A stretch of 64,000 bases of DNA from the IMG/VR virus record IMGVR_UViG_3300027365_000008. The stretch is one strand, 5' to 3'. Positions 23,157-29,955 of the stretch are shown here, in pieces. Made by a program: the position numbers and the translations under genes. Below the pieces are notes generated by a model. The model saw nothing but the letters and a program-made list of their open reading frames with translations, ran no database searches and was not told where the DNA came from. Source of the DNA: a virus. Lineage: Duplodnaviria > Heunggongvirae > Uroviricota > Caudoviricetes. Every line of letters begins with the position of its first letter. Position 1 is the stretch's first letter.

Positions 23157-24224
23157 ATGCGAGAACTGGCAACGATTCGTCGGGTTGACGAAGTGACTCC
23201 CATTGAAGGCGCTGATGCCATTGAATGTGTCAAGGTGGGTGGTTGGCGTGTGGTAGCAAAGAAGAATGAAATGAAGGAAGATGATCTGATTGTCTTCTTC
23301 GAGATCGATAGCTTCCTTCCATCTTCCGATGAACGGTTCGCTTTTCTGATGCAACGCGGAACGAAGACTCTGAATGGTGTCGAAGGCTTCCGTTTGCGCA
23401 CGGTGAAACTTCGTGGGCAGGTATCCCAAGGGCTGGCTCTTCCCCTGTCCCTCTTCCCTGAACTCGAAGGGGTAGAAGAGGATACCGATGTATCAGAAAC
23501 GCTCAATATCATCAAATATGAGCGTCCTGAGCCTCTACGTGGTAAGAAGCCATCACATACCAAAGGTGACTTCCCGTGGTTCATTAGTAAAACCGATGAG
23601 CCGCGTATCCAAAACGTCAAACCGATAACAATTCAGCAACATCGTGATACGCTGTTTGTCCCTACGCTGAAACTGGATGGCAGTTCAACGACCGTGTATT
23701 ACGTCAAGGACGAGCGATACTTCATCAAACCCGAGGAAGGCGAAACCGAACAGGTAGGAATCTGTTCTCGAAATCTGCTTCTTGATCCTAATAAAGACCC
23801 GGATAACCATTTCGTTCGTGGCGCTATCGCCAGTGATCTATTCGAAATCGTGGCGCAGATTGGTCGTGATCTGGATTGGAACCTTGCGCTACAAGCGGAA
23901 ACCATCGGTGAAGGTATCGTTAGGTCTTGGGAACAGATTGAAGGCCCAGTATCGTTGGTGTTCTCCATCTATGACATCGACCGTGCTGAGTATCTGCCTG
24001 CCGGGCGTCTCATGGAACTGATCAAGACCTATGACATTCCTAGTACGATGTTTTACGATCCTATCTATGCATTCAGGGATTACACCCAAGACGAACTGAT
24101 TGCAATGGCTGACGGACCAAGCCTGAAGAATCCTATTCGTGAAGGGCTGGTATTCAAGGCGATGGATGGATCGTATTCCTTCAAGTCCATCAGTAACAAA
24201 TTCCTTTTGAAAGGCGGCGAATGA
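23157..24224 (+). CDS. ATP-dependent nick-sealing RNA ligase of the DraRnl/NgrRnl (Rnl5) type
   Basis: Nucleotidyltransferase motif I TLKLDGSS (KxDG) about residue 170 with a distinctive N-terminal domain (IEGADAIECVKVGGWRVVAKK.E.KEDDLIVFFEIDSFLP); 355 aa. Confidence 0.55.
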   Translation: MRELATIRRVDEVTPIEGADAIECVKVGGWRVVAKKNEMKEDDLIVFFEIDSFLPSSDERFAFLMQRGTKTLNGVEGFRLRTVKLRGQVSQGLALPLSLFPELEGVEEDTDVSETLNIIKYERPEPLRGKKPSHTKGDFPWFISKTDEPRIQNVKPITIQQHRDTLFVPTLKLDGSSTTVYYVKDERYFIKPEEGETEQVGICSRNLLLDPNKDPDNHFVRGAIASDLFEIVAQIGRDLDWNLALQAETIGEGIVRSWEQIEGPVSLVFSIYDIDRAEYLPAGRLMELIKTYDIPSTMFYDPIYAFRDYTQDELIAMADGPSLKNPIREGLVFKAMDGSYSFKSISNKFLLKGGE

Positions 24225-24416
24225 ATGAATTACCTCAAACGAGGCTGGCAAGCGCATATCGATGTCGTGGTCACACTCATTGGCATCGCCTTGTACATCA
24301 TTGCCGCTATGACCGGGCTGGGTGACGGGGCTTATCTAATCTCGCTCGTCATGACACTCGCCGGGTCTTCTTGGACTTGGCTTGGACTTATCCAACGGTG
24401 GAAATATAATGACTGA
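24225..24416 (+). CDS. small membrane protein
   Basis: Two TM helices. Confidence 0.4.
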   Translation: MNYLKRGWQAHIDVVVTLIGIALYIIAAMTGLGDGAYLISLVMTLAGSSWTWLGLIQRWKYND

Positions 24417-24588
24417 CTACATCAAAGAAATCGGGCTGTTCTTGGTAACAGTCATGTCAATCGTAATCCTCTTCGGGGTGATTGGTTGGGGGCTGGTGTT
24501 TTTCGCTATCGCTATCGTCGGTCTGTTCCTGATTGGCGTTATCGTCGGGACTTACGAAACCATCAAAAACAAACTGAAAAGGAAGTAA
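24409..24588 (+). CDS. small membrane protein
   Basis: ATG overlaps the upstream stop (ATGACTGA); two TM helices. Confidence 0.4.
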   Translation: MTDYIKEIGLFLVTVMSIVILFGVIGWGLVFFAIAIVGLFLIGVIVGTYETIKNKLKRK

Positions 24589-24589
24589 T

Positions 24590-24832
24590 ATGTTTAAACG
24601 ATTCCATGAAATGTTGGTAAAGATTGTATTCTTGATCCCATTCACGATAACTTTCATTCTGATCTCCATCGGGGTGATCTCGGTGATGATCGGATACACT
24701 ATCCATCGGGCAATCGCCAAACTTCACAATTGGTTTCTGCCCAAGGATTCAAAATGGAAGCGTGTTGAAATGCCAGAATTGACTAAGGTAGTCAAATCCG
24801 CAATCAAAGAGCATAAGGAGGAATCAGAATGA
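24590..24832 (+). CDS. small membrane protein
   Basis: Two hydrophobic helices. Confidence 0.4.
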   Translation: MFKRFHEMLVKIVFLIPFTITFILISIGVISVMIGYTIHRAIAKLHNWFLPKDSKWKRVEMPELTKVVKSAIKEHKEESE

Positions 24833-25329: not shown

Positions 25330-28300
25330 ATGTCAACGATTATGGTTACCAAGCGTGATGGAAGCGTGGAAGACTTCAAGGTTGAGAAGGTTCGCAAATG
25401 CATCAACTGGGCATGTGAAGGTCTTCAAGTCAATCCTCTCGCATTGGAATCCCGTTTCAATGAATATCTCCAAACCGAAGTAACCACCAAAGTCATTCAA
25501 GACAGCCTCGTGTTCTGTGCGCGTTCCCTAGCCACGGCGGCTGATTCGGATTTCGTGTTCGTCGCGGGTCGCCTGATGACCATGAACATCTGGAAAGAGA
25601 CGGGCATCTATGAGAAGCCCTTCTATGACGTGCTGACCGATGGCGTGGTTCCCTATGCTATCGATAACACAATTCTTTCGAAATACACCAAAGCCGAGAT
25701 CGAGGAACTGGGTTCCTATATGGTTCAGGAACGTGATCTGAATCATAGCTTTGGTAGCGTTCTGACGGCGATCAACAAGTACCTGCTTCCTAATGAAGCC
25801 ATCCAGCCGATGATCATGGCATCCTCGATGATCATTGCCAGTGTGGAGGATCAGGAGATTCGTGTTGCGAAGGCCAAAGAGTTCTATGATTCTTTGTCAA
25901 ATCGTGAACTTTCTTTGGCAACTCCGTGGTGGGGTAACCTGCGCAGCGATGGCAATATCAGTTCGTGTTTCATCATCAAGCCGAGTGATAGCCTCGAATC
26001 GATCTTCGCTAATGTGACTCGTGCCGCAATGACTTCCAAGGCGGGTGGTGGCCTTGGCGTGTCTATGGCAGCTATTCGTGCCCAAGGCTCTCCGGTCGGT
26101 GGGCGTCCCAACTCGTCCAAAGGCGTATTCAATTGGACGAAGATTTTCAATGATGTTGCGATTGCGGTTGACCAGTGTTTTCATCCTGATACACTAGTCA
26201 CCACTCAGAATGGATTCAAGGCAATCAAAGACATTATTCCCCGCGAGGATCGTGTTCTCACCGACAACGGGAAGTTTAACCGGGTAGAAGAAAAGATCAT
26301 GTATGAGCAAAGCGAGCCGATGTATCGTGTTCGCACAGCACATGATCTTGTCGATACCTTTGTAACCGGGGAACATCCCGTTAAGGCTCTTACCAATCTG
26401 GATACCCTTGAACATGGTTACTTGGATGTGAAGGACTTGGAGATTGGTGATTATCTGGGTCAGAAGATTCCGTCTTATACGATTGAATCGGAGTTGACCC
26501 ATGAAGAACTGTACGCTTATGGTACGTCGCTCATGCTTCCGGGGGCAAATCACATCGATTCTCGATTCCTCCATATTGAACCTGAGAAACAGATGTCGAT
26601 TATCTTTGGTATGATCGATGCCAAAGGATCGGCTGACAATGCAAATGAACTGATCATCGAATCTGCGAATCTGGCTCATGAGATTCGATATCTGCTTCTC
26701 CGTAATGGAATCCCAGTAAAATCAGAATACGTCGGGGGATCATTCAAACTCACTATCCAAGCCACTGGCAAGCTGGCTCTTATGCTTGGTGTCAACGATG
26801 TCGAAGAGGTTGACTGGATCGTTTCGGATGGGTATATTTTCAGCCCCATCACTGAGTTTGAGGACGGGATTGAATACAATTCAGAAGTTTACGATCTGCG
26901 TGTGCAGAGTATTCCGTCTTATCAAACACATGCGTTCATGGCTCACAACGGCGGCAAGCGGGCAGGAGCCATTACCGTCGAACTCCCGATCTGGCACCGT
27001 GACATCGAAGGGTTCCTTGAGATTCAACATGAAACCGGCGATCTGCGCACCAAGTGCTTTGACATCTTTCCGCAAGTCGGGATGCATGATCTGTTCATGA
27101 AAATGGATGCGGCTGATGGTGAAAACGATTGGCATACATTCTGTCCGTATGAAGTGAAACAGGTTCTCGATATCCAACTGGATGAAGTTTACGGCAAGGA
27201 GTTCGAAAAGGCGTACAAGAAGTGTGTCAAAGCCTATGAGAAGGGTGATCTGAAGAACGTCGCCGTGTACAAGACACGTAACCTGATCAAGTCGATGATG
27301 CGTACCCAGTTCGAATCTGGTCTTCCGTATGTGGCCTATCTGGACACCATCAATGATGACAACCCGAATGACCATGAAGGCACGATTCCTTCCGTCAACC
27401 TTTGTGTCGCTCCCGAGACTTTGGTGCTGACTGACAAGGGCAATCTTCCTATCGTAACACTGAAAGATCAGTGGGTTAACGTCTGGAATGGACACGAGTT
27501 TAGCGAGGTCTTGGTTGAAAAGACGGCGGACCATGCTCATCTGCTGCATGTAGAAACGGAAGGCGGTCGTTCACTGGATGCGACGGACTATCACAAATGG
27601 TATCGCGTCGTCGATGGTGAAATGGAAATGGTTCGGACCTTTGAACTGAAACCGGGCGATGAAGTTTGTGTAGTCGATAACTATCCCATTGATCGTATCA
27701 AGTCTATTGATGACCAATACCGGTGGTCTGATGTATACTGTTTCAATGAACCGAAACGGCATCTGGGCGTATTCAATGGCATTATCACCGGGCAATGCAA
27801 TGAGTCATTCAGTGTCGTCAAGCCGGATGTCTATGGTCACTCGTGCAATCTGATCTCTATCGTCGCCGGTCGAGTTAAGGATTACGAACATCTGGAATAT
27901 CTGGCAGGTCTTGCGACTCGAATGCTTGACAATGGGATCGAACTGACCAAAGACCCCATGGACATTGCCGGTGCCCATAATGAGCGTTACCGCACGATTG
28001 GTATTGGCATCCAAGGTCTTCACGATTGGCTTGCCAAGAATCGCAAGATGTACAACGATACTAAATTCATCGGTGAGTTTGCAGAGACGATTCAATTTGG
28101 TGCGGTGAAAGAGAGCATCAAACTAGCTAAAGAACGCGGCGCGTATCCGGCGTACTCGGGTTCTCGGTGGGATACCGGTAAGCAGATTGCCAAGTATCGC
28201 AAGCACAGTCGTCGTGGTCTTGACTGGAATTCTTTGCAAACTGGACTTGATCAATATGGCATCCGCAATAGCCAATTGACTTCTCCGGCACCGAACACAA

Positions 28301-28695
28301 CCACGTCCATTTTCATGGATGCAGGTCCGGGCGTGATGCCGTGCTATGGTGGGTTCTATCTCAAGGACAATACCAATGGGGAGTTCCCGGTTGCCGGTAT
28401 GTATCTGAAAGAGAATCCGTTGTGCTATGCCAAGAATGCGGCTCGCTATGATCATGAAACACTCGTCAATGCGGTTGCCGAAATCCAGAAGTTCACGGAT
28501 GCGGGCATTTCGAGCGAGTATATCTTTGACCACAACAAAGAGGGCTTCAGTGCGAAAGAACTGTATGATCTGATTCATCTGGCATGGCGTAAGAAGACCA
28601 AGGCGGTCTATTACATTCGTAACATCAAGAAAGGTTCTAACCTCGAAGAAGAGGTCGGCATGAGCCAAGCATCATGCGAAGGTTGCGCAAACTAA
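25330..28695 (+). CDS. nrdA: class Ia ribonucleotide reductase alpha subunit NrdA carrying two inteins
   Basis: ATP cone (VTKRDGSVEDF); SSCFII (Cys225 region); GGKRAGAITVELPIWH; NLC-N-E active-site loop; C-terminal CEGC. Two in-frame insertions carry intein blocks. Confidence 0.85.
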   Translation: MSTIMVTKRDGSVEDFKVEKVRKCINWACEGLQVNPLALESRFNEYLQTEVTTKVIQDSLVFCARSLATAADSDFVFVAGRLMTMNIWKETGIYEKPFYDVLTDGVVPYAIDNTILSKYTKAEIEELGSYMVQERDLNHSFGSVLTAINKYLLPNEAIQPMIMASSMIIASVEDQEIRVAKAKEFYDSLSNRELSLATPWWGNLRSDGNISSCFIIKPSDSLESIFANVTRAAMTSKAGGGLGVSMAAIRAQGSPVGGRPNSSKGVFNWTKIFNDVAIAVDQCFHPDTLVTTQNGFKAIKDIIPREDRVLTDNGKFNRVEEKIMYEQSEPMYRVRTAHDLVDTFVTGEHPVKALTNLDTLEHGYLDVKDLEIGDYLGQKIPSYTIESELTHEELYAYGTSLMLPGANHIDSRFLHIEPEKQMSIIFGMIDAKGSADNANELIIESANLAHEIRYLLLRNGIPVKSEYVGGSFKLTIQATGKLALMLGVNDVEEVDWIVSDGYIFSPITEFEDGIEYNSEVYDLRVQSIPSYQTHAFMAHNGGKRAGAITVELPIWHRDIEGFLEIQHETGDLRTKCFDIFPQVGMHDLFMKMDAADGENDWHTFCPYEVKQVLDIQLDEVYGKEFEKAYKKCVKAYEKGDLKNVAVYKTRNLIKSMMRTQFESGLPYVAYLDTINDDNPNDHEGTIPSVNLCVAPETLVLTDKGNLPIVTLKDQWVNVWNGHEFSEVLVEKTADHAHLLHVETEGGRSLDATDYHKWYRVVDGEMEMVRTFELKPGDEVCVVDNYPIDRIKSIDDQYRWSDVYCFNEPKRHLGVFNGIITGQCNESFSVVKPDVYGHSCNLISIVAGRVKDYEHLEYLAGLATRMLDNGIELTKDPMDIAGAHNERYRTIGIGIQGLHDWLAKNRKMYNDTKFIGEFAETIQFGAVKESIKLAKERGAYPAYSGSRWDTGKQIAKYRKHSRRGLDWNSLQTGLDQYGIRNSQLTSPAPNTTTSIFMDAGPGVMPCYGGFYLKDNTNGEFPVAGMYLKENPLCYAKNAARYDHETLVNAVAEIQKFTDAGISSEYIFDHNKEGFSAKELYDLIHLAWRKKTKAVYYIRNIKKGSNLEEEVGMSQASCEGCAN
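26176..26949 (+). other. intein 1 in nrdA (258 aa, LAGLIDADG-type) with a non-canonical +1 residue
   Basis: Block A CFHPDTLV; block B TGEHPVKALT; IIFGMIDAKGS LAGLIDADG-like; block G VYDLRVQ...HAFMAHN; the next extein residue is Gly, not Cys/Ser/Thr. Confidence 0.65.
27403..27795 (+). other. intein 2 in nrdA (131-aa mini-intein) ending in Gln
   Basis: Inserted at NL|C-N-E; block A CVAPETLVLT; block G VYCFNEPKRHLGVFNGIITGQ followed by +1 Cys (the active-site Cys439 equivalent). Confidence 0.65.
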
Positions 28696-28710: not shown

Positions 28711-29724
28711 ATGGCAGACATTACCAATCGACCGTTGTTCAATACTGCCGGGGATGATTCCCCGGCGTCTCAGAGCCTCATCGGTGCCAACCCGACTGGG
28801 ATTCTGAATCTGGACGAGTGTCGTTATGCATGGGTCAATCCCATGTATCGCAAGATGATGGGGAACTTCTGGATTCCCGAGAAGGTTGACATGACATCGG
28901 ATCGGGTTAATCGTTCTCACCTGACGGACGATGAGGATGCCAGTGTCCGGGCTACCCTTTCGTTCCTGATCTATCTGGATAGCGTTCAGGTTTCCAATCT
29001 GGACAACATTGCGTCATACATTACCAATGCGGGGGTATCGAATCTTCTGAAGGTTCAAGACTTCCAAGAAGTCGTTCATACGATGTCCTATCAGTACATC
29101 CTTCAGAACATCTACCCGCACTTTGAACGTCAGGAGATTTACAACCTGTGGCGCACTAATCCAATTCTGCGTAAGCGGAATGAGTTCATTGCGTCGATCT
29201 ATCAGAGGTTCATCGATGACCAGACCCTTGACAACTTCAAGCGGGTCATCGTGGCTAACCTGCTGCTGGAAGGTATCTATTTCTATCAGGGATTCAACTT
29301 CTTCGAACAGCTTGCCAGTCGTAATAAGCTGGTTGAAACCAACAAGGTGATTCAGTACATCAAGACGGATGAGAACACCCACCTTGCGCTGTTTATCAAC
29401 ATCATCAATGAAGGGGAAATCGTTGATGTGAAAAAGGATGCCGAGTGGATTTACGAGATGGTGGATGAAGCCGTTCGTCAGGAAGTAGAGTGGTCCCACT
29501 ACACCTATGGCAACCGTATCATGGGTATCACCGAGAACTCGTCGGAAACCTATATCAAGTGGCTGGGCAACAATCGTCTCCGTGCGATTAAACTCAATCC
29601 GCTCTACGAGAATGTCAGCAACCCGTATCAGCACCTCGACGGTGCCAAGGAAGCCAACTTCTTTGAAACTACGGTGACTGAGTATAGTCGTTCTGAATCT
29701 ATTGATGGTTGGGAGGATTTCTAA
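28711..29724 (+). CDS. nrdB: ribonucleotide reductase beta subunit NrdB
   Basis: Ferritin-like di-iron/tyrosyl radical protein (EEAVH..SY, E..H motifs); 337 aa directly after nrdA. Confidence 0.8.
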   Translation: MADITNRPLFNTAGDDSPASQSLIGANPTGILNLDECRYAWVNPMYRKMMGNFWIPEKVDMTSDRVNRSHLTDDEDASVRATLSFLIYLDSVQVSNLDNIASYITNAGVSNLLKVQDFQEVVHTMSYQYILQNIYPHFERQEIYNLWRTNPILRKRNEFIASIYQRFIDDQTLDNFKRVIVANLLLEGIYFYQGFNFFEQLASRNKLVETNKVIQYIKTDENTHLALFINIINEGEIVDVKKDAEWIYEMVDEAVRQEVEWSHYTYGNRIMGITENSSETYIKWLGNNRLRAIKLNPLYENVSNPYQHLDGAKEANFFETTVTEYSRSESIDGWEDF

Positions 29725-29955
29725 TTGGAAAAGTTCATCATCTATTCAAAGGAAACGTGTTCCTTTTGTCGGCGTGCCAAGGAACTGTTGGATAGTGTGG
29801 GGTTGGAATACGAAGAACGCAATCTGGTTGACTTCCCTGATATGCATCGGTATTTCGTGGAAAGTGGGTTCCGAACGGTCCCCCAAATCTACTACAAGGA
29901 TGACCATATCGGCGGGTACACCGACCTTGAGCAATACCTTCTCGATGTGATGTAA
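29725..29955 (+). CDS. glutaredoxin (NrdH/Grx-like)
   Basis: CSFC active site, TVPQIY, GG.TDL; TTG start overlaps the nrdB stop. Confidence 0.7.
   Translation: MEKFIIYSKETCSFCRRAKELLDSVGLEYEERNLVDFPDMHRYFVESGFRTVPQIYYKDDHIGGYTDLEQYLLDVM

Follow-up and report, generated by a model that had tools for sequence, protein, structure and literature searches.

An intein followed by glycine at a conserved Gln/Gly site of a phage ribonucleotide reductase, and how it might be processed

We analyzed the nrdA gene in a 64,000-nucleotide stretch of a Caudoviricetes genome (IMG/VR record IMGVR_UViG_3300027365_000008), referred to below as the window. The gene encodes the alpha subunit of a class Ia ribonucleotide reductase (RNR) and carries two inteins. 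The first of these, intein 1, is followed by glycine (Gly+1), where a canonical class 1 intein is followed by Cys, Ser, or Thr as the first residue of the C-extein (+1). It is inserted between the equivalents of Q294 and G295 of Escherichia coli R1 (phmmer alignment, ungapped, chain residues 224 to 324), a site that lies within RNR specificity loop 2. We hold, with about even confidence, that intein 1 belongs, intact and active, to a very large family of homing-endonuclease inteins directed at the loop-2 Gln/Gly site, with aminolysis as the likeliest route of processing. Within this extraordinary family the window intein is unexceptional, and the Gly+1 inteins probably process or splice by a nonstandard route.

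A first-pass annotation of the window, made from its sequence, had noted that canonical splicing requires a nucleophile at +1, and it posed the problem correctly. Reviews up to 2020 give the intein +1 residue as Cys, Ser, or Thr (PMC4031507, PMC7664689). We found no report of Gly+1 inteins, of class 4 inteins, or of inteins with a nonnucleophilic +1 residue in the literature that we searched, which was incomplete, and an earlier description may exist. Surveys of inteins in bacteria, eukaryotes, giant viruses, and phages do not mention Gly+1 in those parts of their text that were searched.

Junctions, fold, and family of intein 1

Intein-less homologues fix both junctions of intein 1. A word-indexed protein search with intein 1 and its flanks gave only three matches, all of them intein-less NrdA proteins (P0001 to P0003) that run through the site without a gap or an added residue (AVAVDQGGKRAGAFTV, AVAVDQGGKRAGA, and FNDVAVAVDQGGKRAGAFTVHLPIWHRD; core, VDQGGKRAGA). 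The window reads ...FNDVAIAVDQ, followed by 258 amino acids and then GGKRAGAITVELPIWHRD, and the conserved motif VDQ/GGKR is thus interrupted exactly. In the DNA, the junctions are gtt gac cag / TGT ttt cat cct gat aca cta gtc ... gct cac AAC / GGC GGC aag cgg, with the Cys1 codon TGT at 26176 to 26178 and the terminal CAC AAC at 26944 to 26949 (AAC, 26947 to 26949). The glycine that the first-pass annotation placed at +1 is confirmed both by the DNA and by the intein-less homologues. The start that it gave for the intein was also correct; the end that it gave, 26950, falls one base too far, on the first position of the +1 codon, and the intein ends at 26949. Since the intein-less homologues are colinear at the site, the insertion is exact and no other parsing of it is possible. 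A shifted boundary that would place Ser, Thr, or Cys after a terminal Asn or Gln, which had been left open as a way out, is rejected on these grounds; near block G, moreover, the family alignment contains no conserved pair of Asn or Gln followed by Ser, Thr, or Cys.

The motifs listed earlier for intein 1 (CFHPDTLV, TGEHPVKALT, IIFGMIDAKGS, and a block G ending in FMAHN) were all found. An AlphaFold2 model built with a 27-sequence family alignment had a mean pLDDT of 91.5, and its best foldseek matches were the endonuclease-bearing inteins TliVMA, PhoVMA, and PI-SceI (E values of 1e-11 to 1e-7). The Pfam Intein_splicing profile matches 23 of the 27 aligned family members; the window copy falls below the Pfam threshold. 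A phmmer search of PDB sequences with intein 1 found nothing, and there is no solved structure for any member of the family at this site. A tblastn search of 50,697 phage records yielded two weak matches only, both to inteins located in other genes; none of the cultured phages in the collection carries a close relative of intein 1. We conclude that intein 1 is an intein by fold, motifs, location, and endonuclease content. It has the features that define class 1 inteins (a HINT fold with blocks A, B, F, and G; exact in-frame insertion; Cys1; and a C-terminal His-Asn) apart from the +1 residue, which is Gly instead of Cys, Ser, or Thr.

The family to which intein 1 belongs is large. A full-database HMMER search of 1.84 billion representative proteins gave 507 matches, 131 of them with E values below 1e-10; among the top 150, almost every protein is an RNR alpha subunit interrupted by an intein at this same site. 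Other RNR inteins at the site were compared, as the first-pass annotation had suggested as a check: of the 129 representatives whose junctions could be parsed, 93 have Gly+1 and 36 have Ser+1. The -1 residue is Gln in all 129 and the +2 residue is Gly in 128; 124 begin with Cys, and 124 end in His-Asn. A scan of viral contigs keyed on the N-terminal junction, and so blind to the +1 residue, identified 241 loci, many of them in giant-virus metagenome-assembled genomes. The best 80 of these 241 loci comprise 60 with Gly+1, 18 with Ser+1, none with Ala+1, and 2 that were unparsed. A scan of viral contigs with a single protein confirmed nothing.

For bacteria and archaea, one GTDB genome per species was scanned for the junction peptide HNGGKRKG. 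A broad alignment (A1) was too variable for a genome scan; a tighter alignment of the C-terminal junction (A2) worked. The junction was confirmed at 416 loci, a number that speaks to prevalence only and not to the ratio of Gly to Ser, since A2 picks Gly+1 by construction. Cultured carriers include Thiohalocapsa halophila DSM 6210, Thiocapsa imhoffii DSM 21303, and Thiocapsa marina 5811. The nrdA gene of T. marina 5811 is an uninterrupted open reading frame (ORF) of 1369 amino acids (...AVAVNQ/CFAPQTTVFT...AALVHN/GGKRKGAVCAYLETWH), with an extein of the type seen in the Pseudomonas aeruginosa class Ia NrdA structure 5im3. As a separate observation, the sequences P0039, P0042, and P0083 stop or diverge a few residues after HN/GG(G) (e.g., ...VHNGGGKRKGTNKQQH); these could be contig ends, frameshifts, or truncated genes.

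The first-pass annotation had offered a sequencing or point error as one explanation for the glycine. A single base change would be enough to convert a true AGC or TGC codon, but Gly+1 is the majority state among both the representatives and the 78 parsed viral loci of the best 80, it occurs in 416 bacterial species genomes, and it agrees with the native QGG of intein-less alleles. We regard the chance of a sequencing or assembly error at this codon as negligible.

The +1 residue can be traced to the host protein. In 120 intein-less relatives inspected (P0165 to P0284; query, a spliced Ser+1 extein), loop 2 natively reads QGG in 101, QSG in 8, QAG in 4, and QSS in 1. Because intein-less alleles carry QGG, QSG, and QAG, the intein does not impose the +1 residue, which, judging from these sequences, is the host protein's own loop-2 residue. 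The possibility that Ser+1 is imposed by the intein was rejected for the same reason, since intein-less alleles also carry QSG. On a neighbor-joining tree of the splicing domains, a rough tree, the Gly and Ser states are interleaved and have switched at least four times; Ser occurs at +1 in one extein clade, and Gly in most lineages. No intein with Ala+1 was seen among the 129 representatives and 78 viral loci, though QAG occurs among the intein-less alleles; this hints weakly that the family tolerates Gly in particular and not any residue at all.

We compared the catalytic positions in an alignment of 125 splicing domains, 89 with Gly+1 and 36 with Ser+1. All of the positions compared (Cys1, the block B Thr and His, the block F Asp, the penultimate His, and the terminal Asn) are conserved in 100% of the Ser+1 domains. 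The corresponding values for the Gly+1 domains are 97% for Cys1, 88% for the block B Thr, 100% for the block B His, 98% for the block F Asp, 95% for the penultimate His, and 100% for the terminal Asn. Two positions differ between the sets: the residue after the block B His is Pro in 85% of the Gly+1 domains and Gln, Glu, or Asp in the Ser+1 domains, and block F position 13 is His in 47% of the Gly+1 domains versus 91% of the Ser+1 domains (Pro in the window copy). These differences may mark an active site retuned to work with no +1 nucleophile, or they may mark lineage only.

We estimated the ratio of nonsynonymous to synonymous divergence (dN/dS) by the Nei-Gojobori method for nonoverlapping pairs of Gly+1 loci with 70 to 76% identity. 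The ratios, which are approximate because dS is near saturation in many pairs, were 0.07 to 0.52 for the splicing domain, 0.09 to 0.40 for the endonuclease domain, and 0.02 to 0.21 for the flanking extein; none is near 1. With catalytic residues equally conserved in both sets and dN/dS low, the sequences indicate that the Gly+1 inteins are active elements under purifying selection. In bacterial Gly+1 pairs (L083 to L162), we also observed that synonymous divergence is ~1.0 in the intein and ~0.5 in the flanking extein, which suggests either horizontal exchange of the intein between alleles or a stronger codon constraint on the extein.

These data bear on whether the window copy is dead. The first-pass annotation had considered a degenerate intein that inactivates NrdA; in a related version, nrdA would be a relic, or the intein would be kept as a permanent domain in loop 2, with the host RNR supplying deoxyribonucleoside triphosphates. 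The endonuclease of the window copy has decayed, the copy scores under Pfam thresholds, and phage RNRs are auxiliary genes, all of which would suit a dead insertion. Against it, the 1121-codon ORF is uninterrupted, every catalytic residue of the intein is intact, as are intein 2 and the RNR catalytic motifs, and the nrdB and glutaredoxin genes follow directly downstream. In addition to the purifying selection on the family, the nearest relative, P0004, from a phage-like contig on which its nrdA gene is accompanied by helicase, DnaB, and nrdB genes, keeps the same intact arrangement at 50 to 55% extein identity and 40% intein identity to the window: it has Gly+1, its catalytic residues are intact, and its endonuclease has decayed in a similar way. 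In sequence, this likeness looks like long retention under selection for self-removal, which would be unexpected of a dead insert. We consider a dead or permanently retained insertion to be improbable.

Routes by which a Gly+1 intein might be processed

Both junctions of intein 1 carry the residues for the reactions that occur there in class 1 inteins, namely, Cys1 and TxxH for an N-S acyl shift and His-Asn for Asn cyclization. Since Gly+1 has no side-chain nucleophile, a branched intermediate is impossible, and the reactions at the two junctions must run independently. In the route that we favor, an N-S acyl shift at Cys1 would place the N-extein on a thioester. Cyclization of the terminal Asn, independent of any branch, would then cut the C-terminal junction and free the alpha-amine of Gly+1. 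This unhindered amine, held in the active site, would attack the thioester (aminolysis) and form the native Gln-Gly bond of loop 2. The outcome would be a scar-free NrdA from which intein 2 leaves by ordinary splicing at its Cys+1. Glycine offers the least hindered amine and is followed by a second small residue at +2, and both features fit aminolysis as the most likely route. For the A-type bacterial intein-like (BIL) domains, which splice in the absence of a +1 nucleophile, Mills, Johnson and Perler (2014, PMC4031507) described aminolysis as the proposed mechanism. It is the only published ligation route that we found for a HINT domain that lacks a +1 nucleophile. This published precedent, together with the finding that Gly+1 is a family trait derived from the QGG of the host protein, goes beyond what the first-pass annotation had considered.

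Several points weigh against ligation by aminolysis. A nonnucleophilic residue at +1 normally blocks splicing of canonical inteins. Ligation by the Gly+1 inteins is suggested purely by conservation, for which the dN/dS values are approximate, and conserved Cys1 and His-Asn residues would be expected just as much if the intein cleaved and did not ligate. Phages can often do without their RNR, and loss of function in the window copy could therefore be free of cost. Finally, cleavage products predominate in BIL domains, which likewise lack a +1 nucleophile (PMC7664689), and aminolysis may accordingly be inefficient.

The last point also favors the most serious rival to aminolysis, a cleavage-only intein that yields a two-piece NrdA, which the first-pass annotation had raised. 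The thioester at Cys1 would be hydrolyzed or thiolyzed, the Asn would cyclize, and NrdA would consist of two noncovalently associated chains, one of residues 1 to 282 and one starting with GGKR. The conserved Cys1, TxxH, and His-Asn are exactly what cleavage requires. A difficulty is the position of the nick: it would interrupt loop 2 at the equivalents of E. coli Q294/G295, and loop 2 relays the allosteric specificity of RNR. A further difficulty is that the family has shifted at least four times between Ser+1, which gives one chain, and Gly+1, so that the enzyme would have to work equally well nicked or intact. Phage Aeh1 has a functional NrdA made of two chains, as summarized in PMC2677866, and this precedent, also invoked in the first-pass annotation, is real; the Aeh1 gene, however, is split by a free-standing endonuclease gene and not by an intein. 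On balance, we consider cleavage without ligation to be unlikely, though it is a possibility to be taken seriously.

A different chemistry is also conceivable, in which a nucleophile from a nonadjacent extein or intein residue, or from a host factor, takes the place of the +1 side chain and ligation follows. The two differences between the Gly+1 and Ser+1 domains described above, in blocks B and F, would be compatible with this. The family alignment, however, contains no further invariant Cys, Ser, or Thr beyond Cys1 and the block B Thr, and no published route other than aminolysis was found for HINT domains of this kind. We rate such a chemistry as a slim prospect.

If aminolysis is the route, a broader proposal can be made, which we put forward tentatively and rather doubt than believe: the Gly+1 loop-2 inteins would form a fourth mechanistic class of true inteins, ligating through the glycine alpha-amine freed by Asn cyclization. 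Ligation would be efficient enough for hundreds of bacterial species, phages, and giant viruses to depend on it for an essential enzyme. They would have gone unremarked because definitions and search tools assume Cys, Ser, or Thr at +1. That rule is part of the definition of an intein and is the main practical limit of intein-based ligation, which leaves a Cys, Ser, or Thr scar. If Gln-Gly ligation does occur, the HINT fold would be capable of efficient scar-free ligation via a backbone amine, protein engineers who want ligation at glycine would have a starting point, and surveys that demand a +1 nucleophile would undercount inteins. If the family only cleaves, RNR would be the first essential enzyme routinely matured to two chains by an intein, with the nick in its specificity loop.

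The nrdA locus and decay of the endonuclease

Coordinates of the nrdA locus are collected in Table 1. The nrdA product matches the Pfam profiles ATP-cone, Ribonuc_red_lgN, and Ribonuc_red_lgC (E = 7e-109), corresponding to an ATP-cone, an all-alpha domain, and a barrel domain, and it aligns to solved R1 structures (E = 1e-28). Removal of both inteins gives a deduced protein of 732 amino acids that carries SCFII, NLCNES, and CEGC; the equivalents of Cys225, of Asn437, Cys439, and Glu441, and of the C-terminal Cys pair are then all in place, as in a class Ia NrdA. The closest cultured relatives of the N-extein are in FelixO1-like and marine phages (Pseudomonas phage vB_PsaM_M1, 49%; Vibrio phage 11895-B1, 47.5%), and the nrdA genes of both of these phages are intein-less. 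A megablast search of phage records with the window nrdA gave no match, and the exact window NrdA is absent from the assembly index.

Table 1. Features of the nrdA locus in the window
Feature	Coordinates	Strand	Description	Basis
nrdA precursor ORF	25330..28695	+	1121 aa; class Ia RNR alpha with ATP-cone and two inteins	ORF list
N-extein	25330..26175	+	282 aa; ends ...FNDVAIAVDQ; has SCFII (E. coli C225 equivalent)	
Intein 1	26176..26949	+	774 nt, 258 aa; Cys1 ... His-Asn; between E. coli Q294 and G295 equivalents	
Block A, CFHPDTLVTT	26176..26205	+	Cys1 nucleophile	Family alignment
Block B, FVTGEHPVKAL	26359..26391	+	TxxH; Thr and His activating the N-terminal scissile bond	
LAGLIDADG motif 1, lost; remnant YAYGTSLMLPGANH	26512..26553	+	Family consensus YGxxLGDG; ~100 following residues deleted	Alignment
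LAGLIDADG motif 2, degenerate, IIFGMIDAKGS	26599..26631	+	Lys replaces catalytic Asp of family GLLETDG	
Block F, EVYDLRVQSIPSYQT	26884..26928	+	Conserved Asp; Pro where Ser+1 relatives have His	
Block G, HAFMAHN	26929..26949	+	Penultimate His, terminal Asn	
+1 codon, GGC (Gly)	26950..26952	+	Opens GGKRAGAIT; E. coli G295 equivalent	
Middle extein segment	26950..27402	+	151 aa; GGKRAGAITVELPIWH ... IPSVNL	
Intein 2	27403..27795	+	131-aa mini-intein, CVAPETLV...GIITGQ	Weak Pfam Intein_splicing match
C-extein	27796..28695	+	CNESFS ... CEGCAN, stop included	
nrdB, RNR small subunit	28711..29724	+	Directly after nrdA	Pfam Ribonuc_red_sm, E = 1e-61
Glutaredoxin	29725..29955	+	NrdC-like reductant	Pfam Glutaredoxin, E = 1e-16

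The endonuclease domain of intein 1 is reduced: the intein is 258 amino acids long in the window, versus a family median of 343. The Pfam profile LAGLIDADG_3 matches 9 of the 27 aligned family members and does not match the window copy. An active LAGLIDADG endonuclease has two motifs, each with a catalytic acidic residue, and the window copy has lost the first motif and the catalytic Asp of the second. Given this decay, the window copy is probably immobile, and it probably persists because it still excises itself. The nearest relative (L164, 5001 to 8066) shows similar decay of the endonuclease, and the intein of this lineage is probably immobile.

At intein 2, the +1 residue is the thiyl-radical Cys (NL/C/NES), and the site is the most frequent intein site in RNR (PMC2677866). 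The terminal residue of intein 2 is Gln and not Asn. The closest NrdA relative, a protein of 1021 amino acids on a phage-like contig (L164 and L165; Logan SRR15505518 and SRR15505515), has intein 1 and no intein 2. Inteins 1 and 2 thus have separate histories in this phage group.

Upstream of nrdA are genes for a phage lysozyme (22556 to 23143) and an RNA ligase with a PHA02142 OB-fold domain (23157 to 24224). Several small ORFs that resemble membrane proteins (24225 to 24832) lie between the RNA ligase gene and nrdA.

Comparison with known systems

Among known systems, the best structural and profile matches of intein 1 are canonical class 1 LAGLIDADG inteins (PI-SceI/Sce VMA1, Tli and Pho VMA, and PI-PkoII). 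Like these, intein 1 has HINT blocks A, B, F, and G with Cys1, TxxH, and His-Asn; it is inserted in frame at a conserved site of an essential replication-related enzyme, and an endonuclease is nested between the splicing halves. It differs from them in the Gly that follows its terminal Asn, which leaves it with no transesterification and no branched intermediate. The Ser+1 members of the loop-2 family (...VNQ/C...VHN/SGKRNGS) are closer still: they share the site and the blocks, are ~25 to 30% identical to intein 1, and are interleaved with Gly+1 members in the tree. In contrast to intein 1, they satisfy the canonical +1 rule.

The NrdA of phage Aeh1 (nrdA-a / mobE / nrdA-b) resembles that of the window in being a class Ia NrdA interrupted by a mobile element, and its two-chain alpha subunit is active according to the summary in PMC2677866. 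Unlike the window gene, it consists of two ORFs between which lies a free-standing HNH endonuclease gene; it contains no intein and is not processed at the protein level. We found no nrdA in the 170- to 220-kb stretch of NC_005260. An arrangement of genes in pieces, as in Aeh1, is ruled out for the window, where nrdA is one uninterrupted ORF.

BIL domains occur in variable regions of nonessential, often secreted bacterial proteins, carry no homing endonuclease, and mainly cleave. In contrast, the loop-2 family is found in bacteria, phages, and giant viruses, always at one invariant Gln/Gly site of an essential enzyme, carries LAGLIDADG endonucleases, and includes canonical Ser+1 members. The match of intein 1 to the Clostridium thermocellum BIL domain (PDB 2lwy) is weaker than its matches to inteins (foldseek rank 30; profile E value, 1.4e-8). 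Identity as a BIL domain was rejected on the basis of the essential-enzyme site, the homing endonuclease, and the better match to inteins. A-type BIL domains nevertheless have in common with intein 1 a HINT fold, an N-terminal Cys, a C-terminal His-Asn, and a nonnucleophilic +1 residue (for the definition, see PMC4031507). By analogy, we conclude that intein 1, although it is not a BIL domain, probably shares the chemistry of one.

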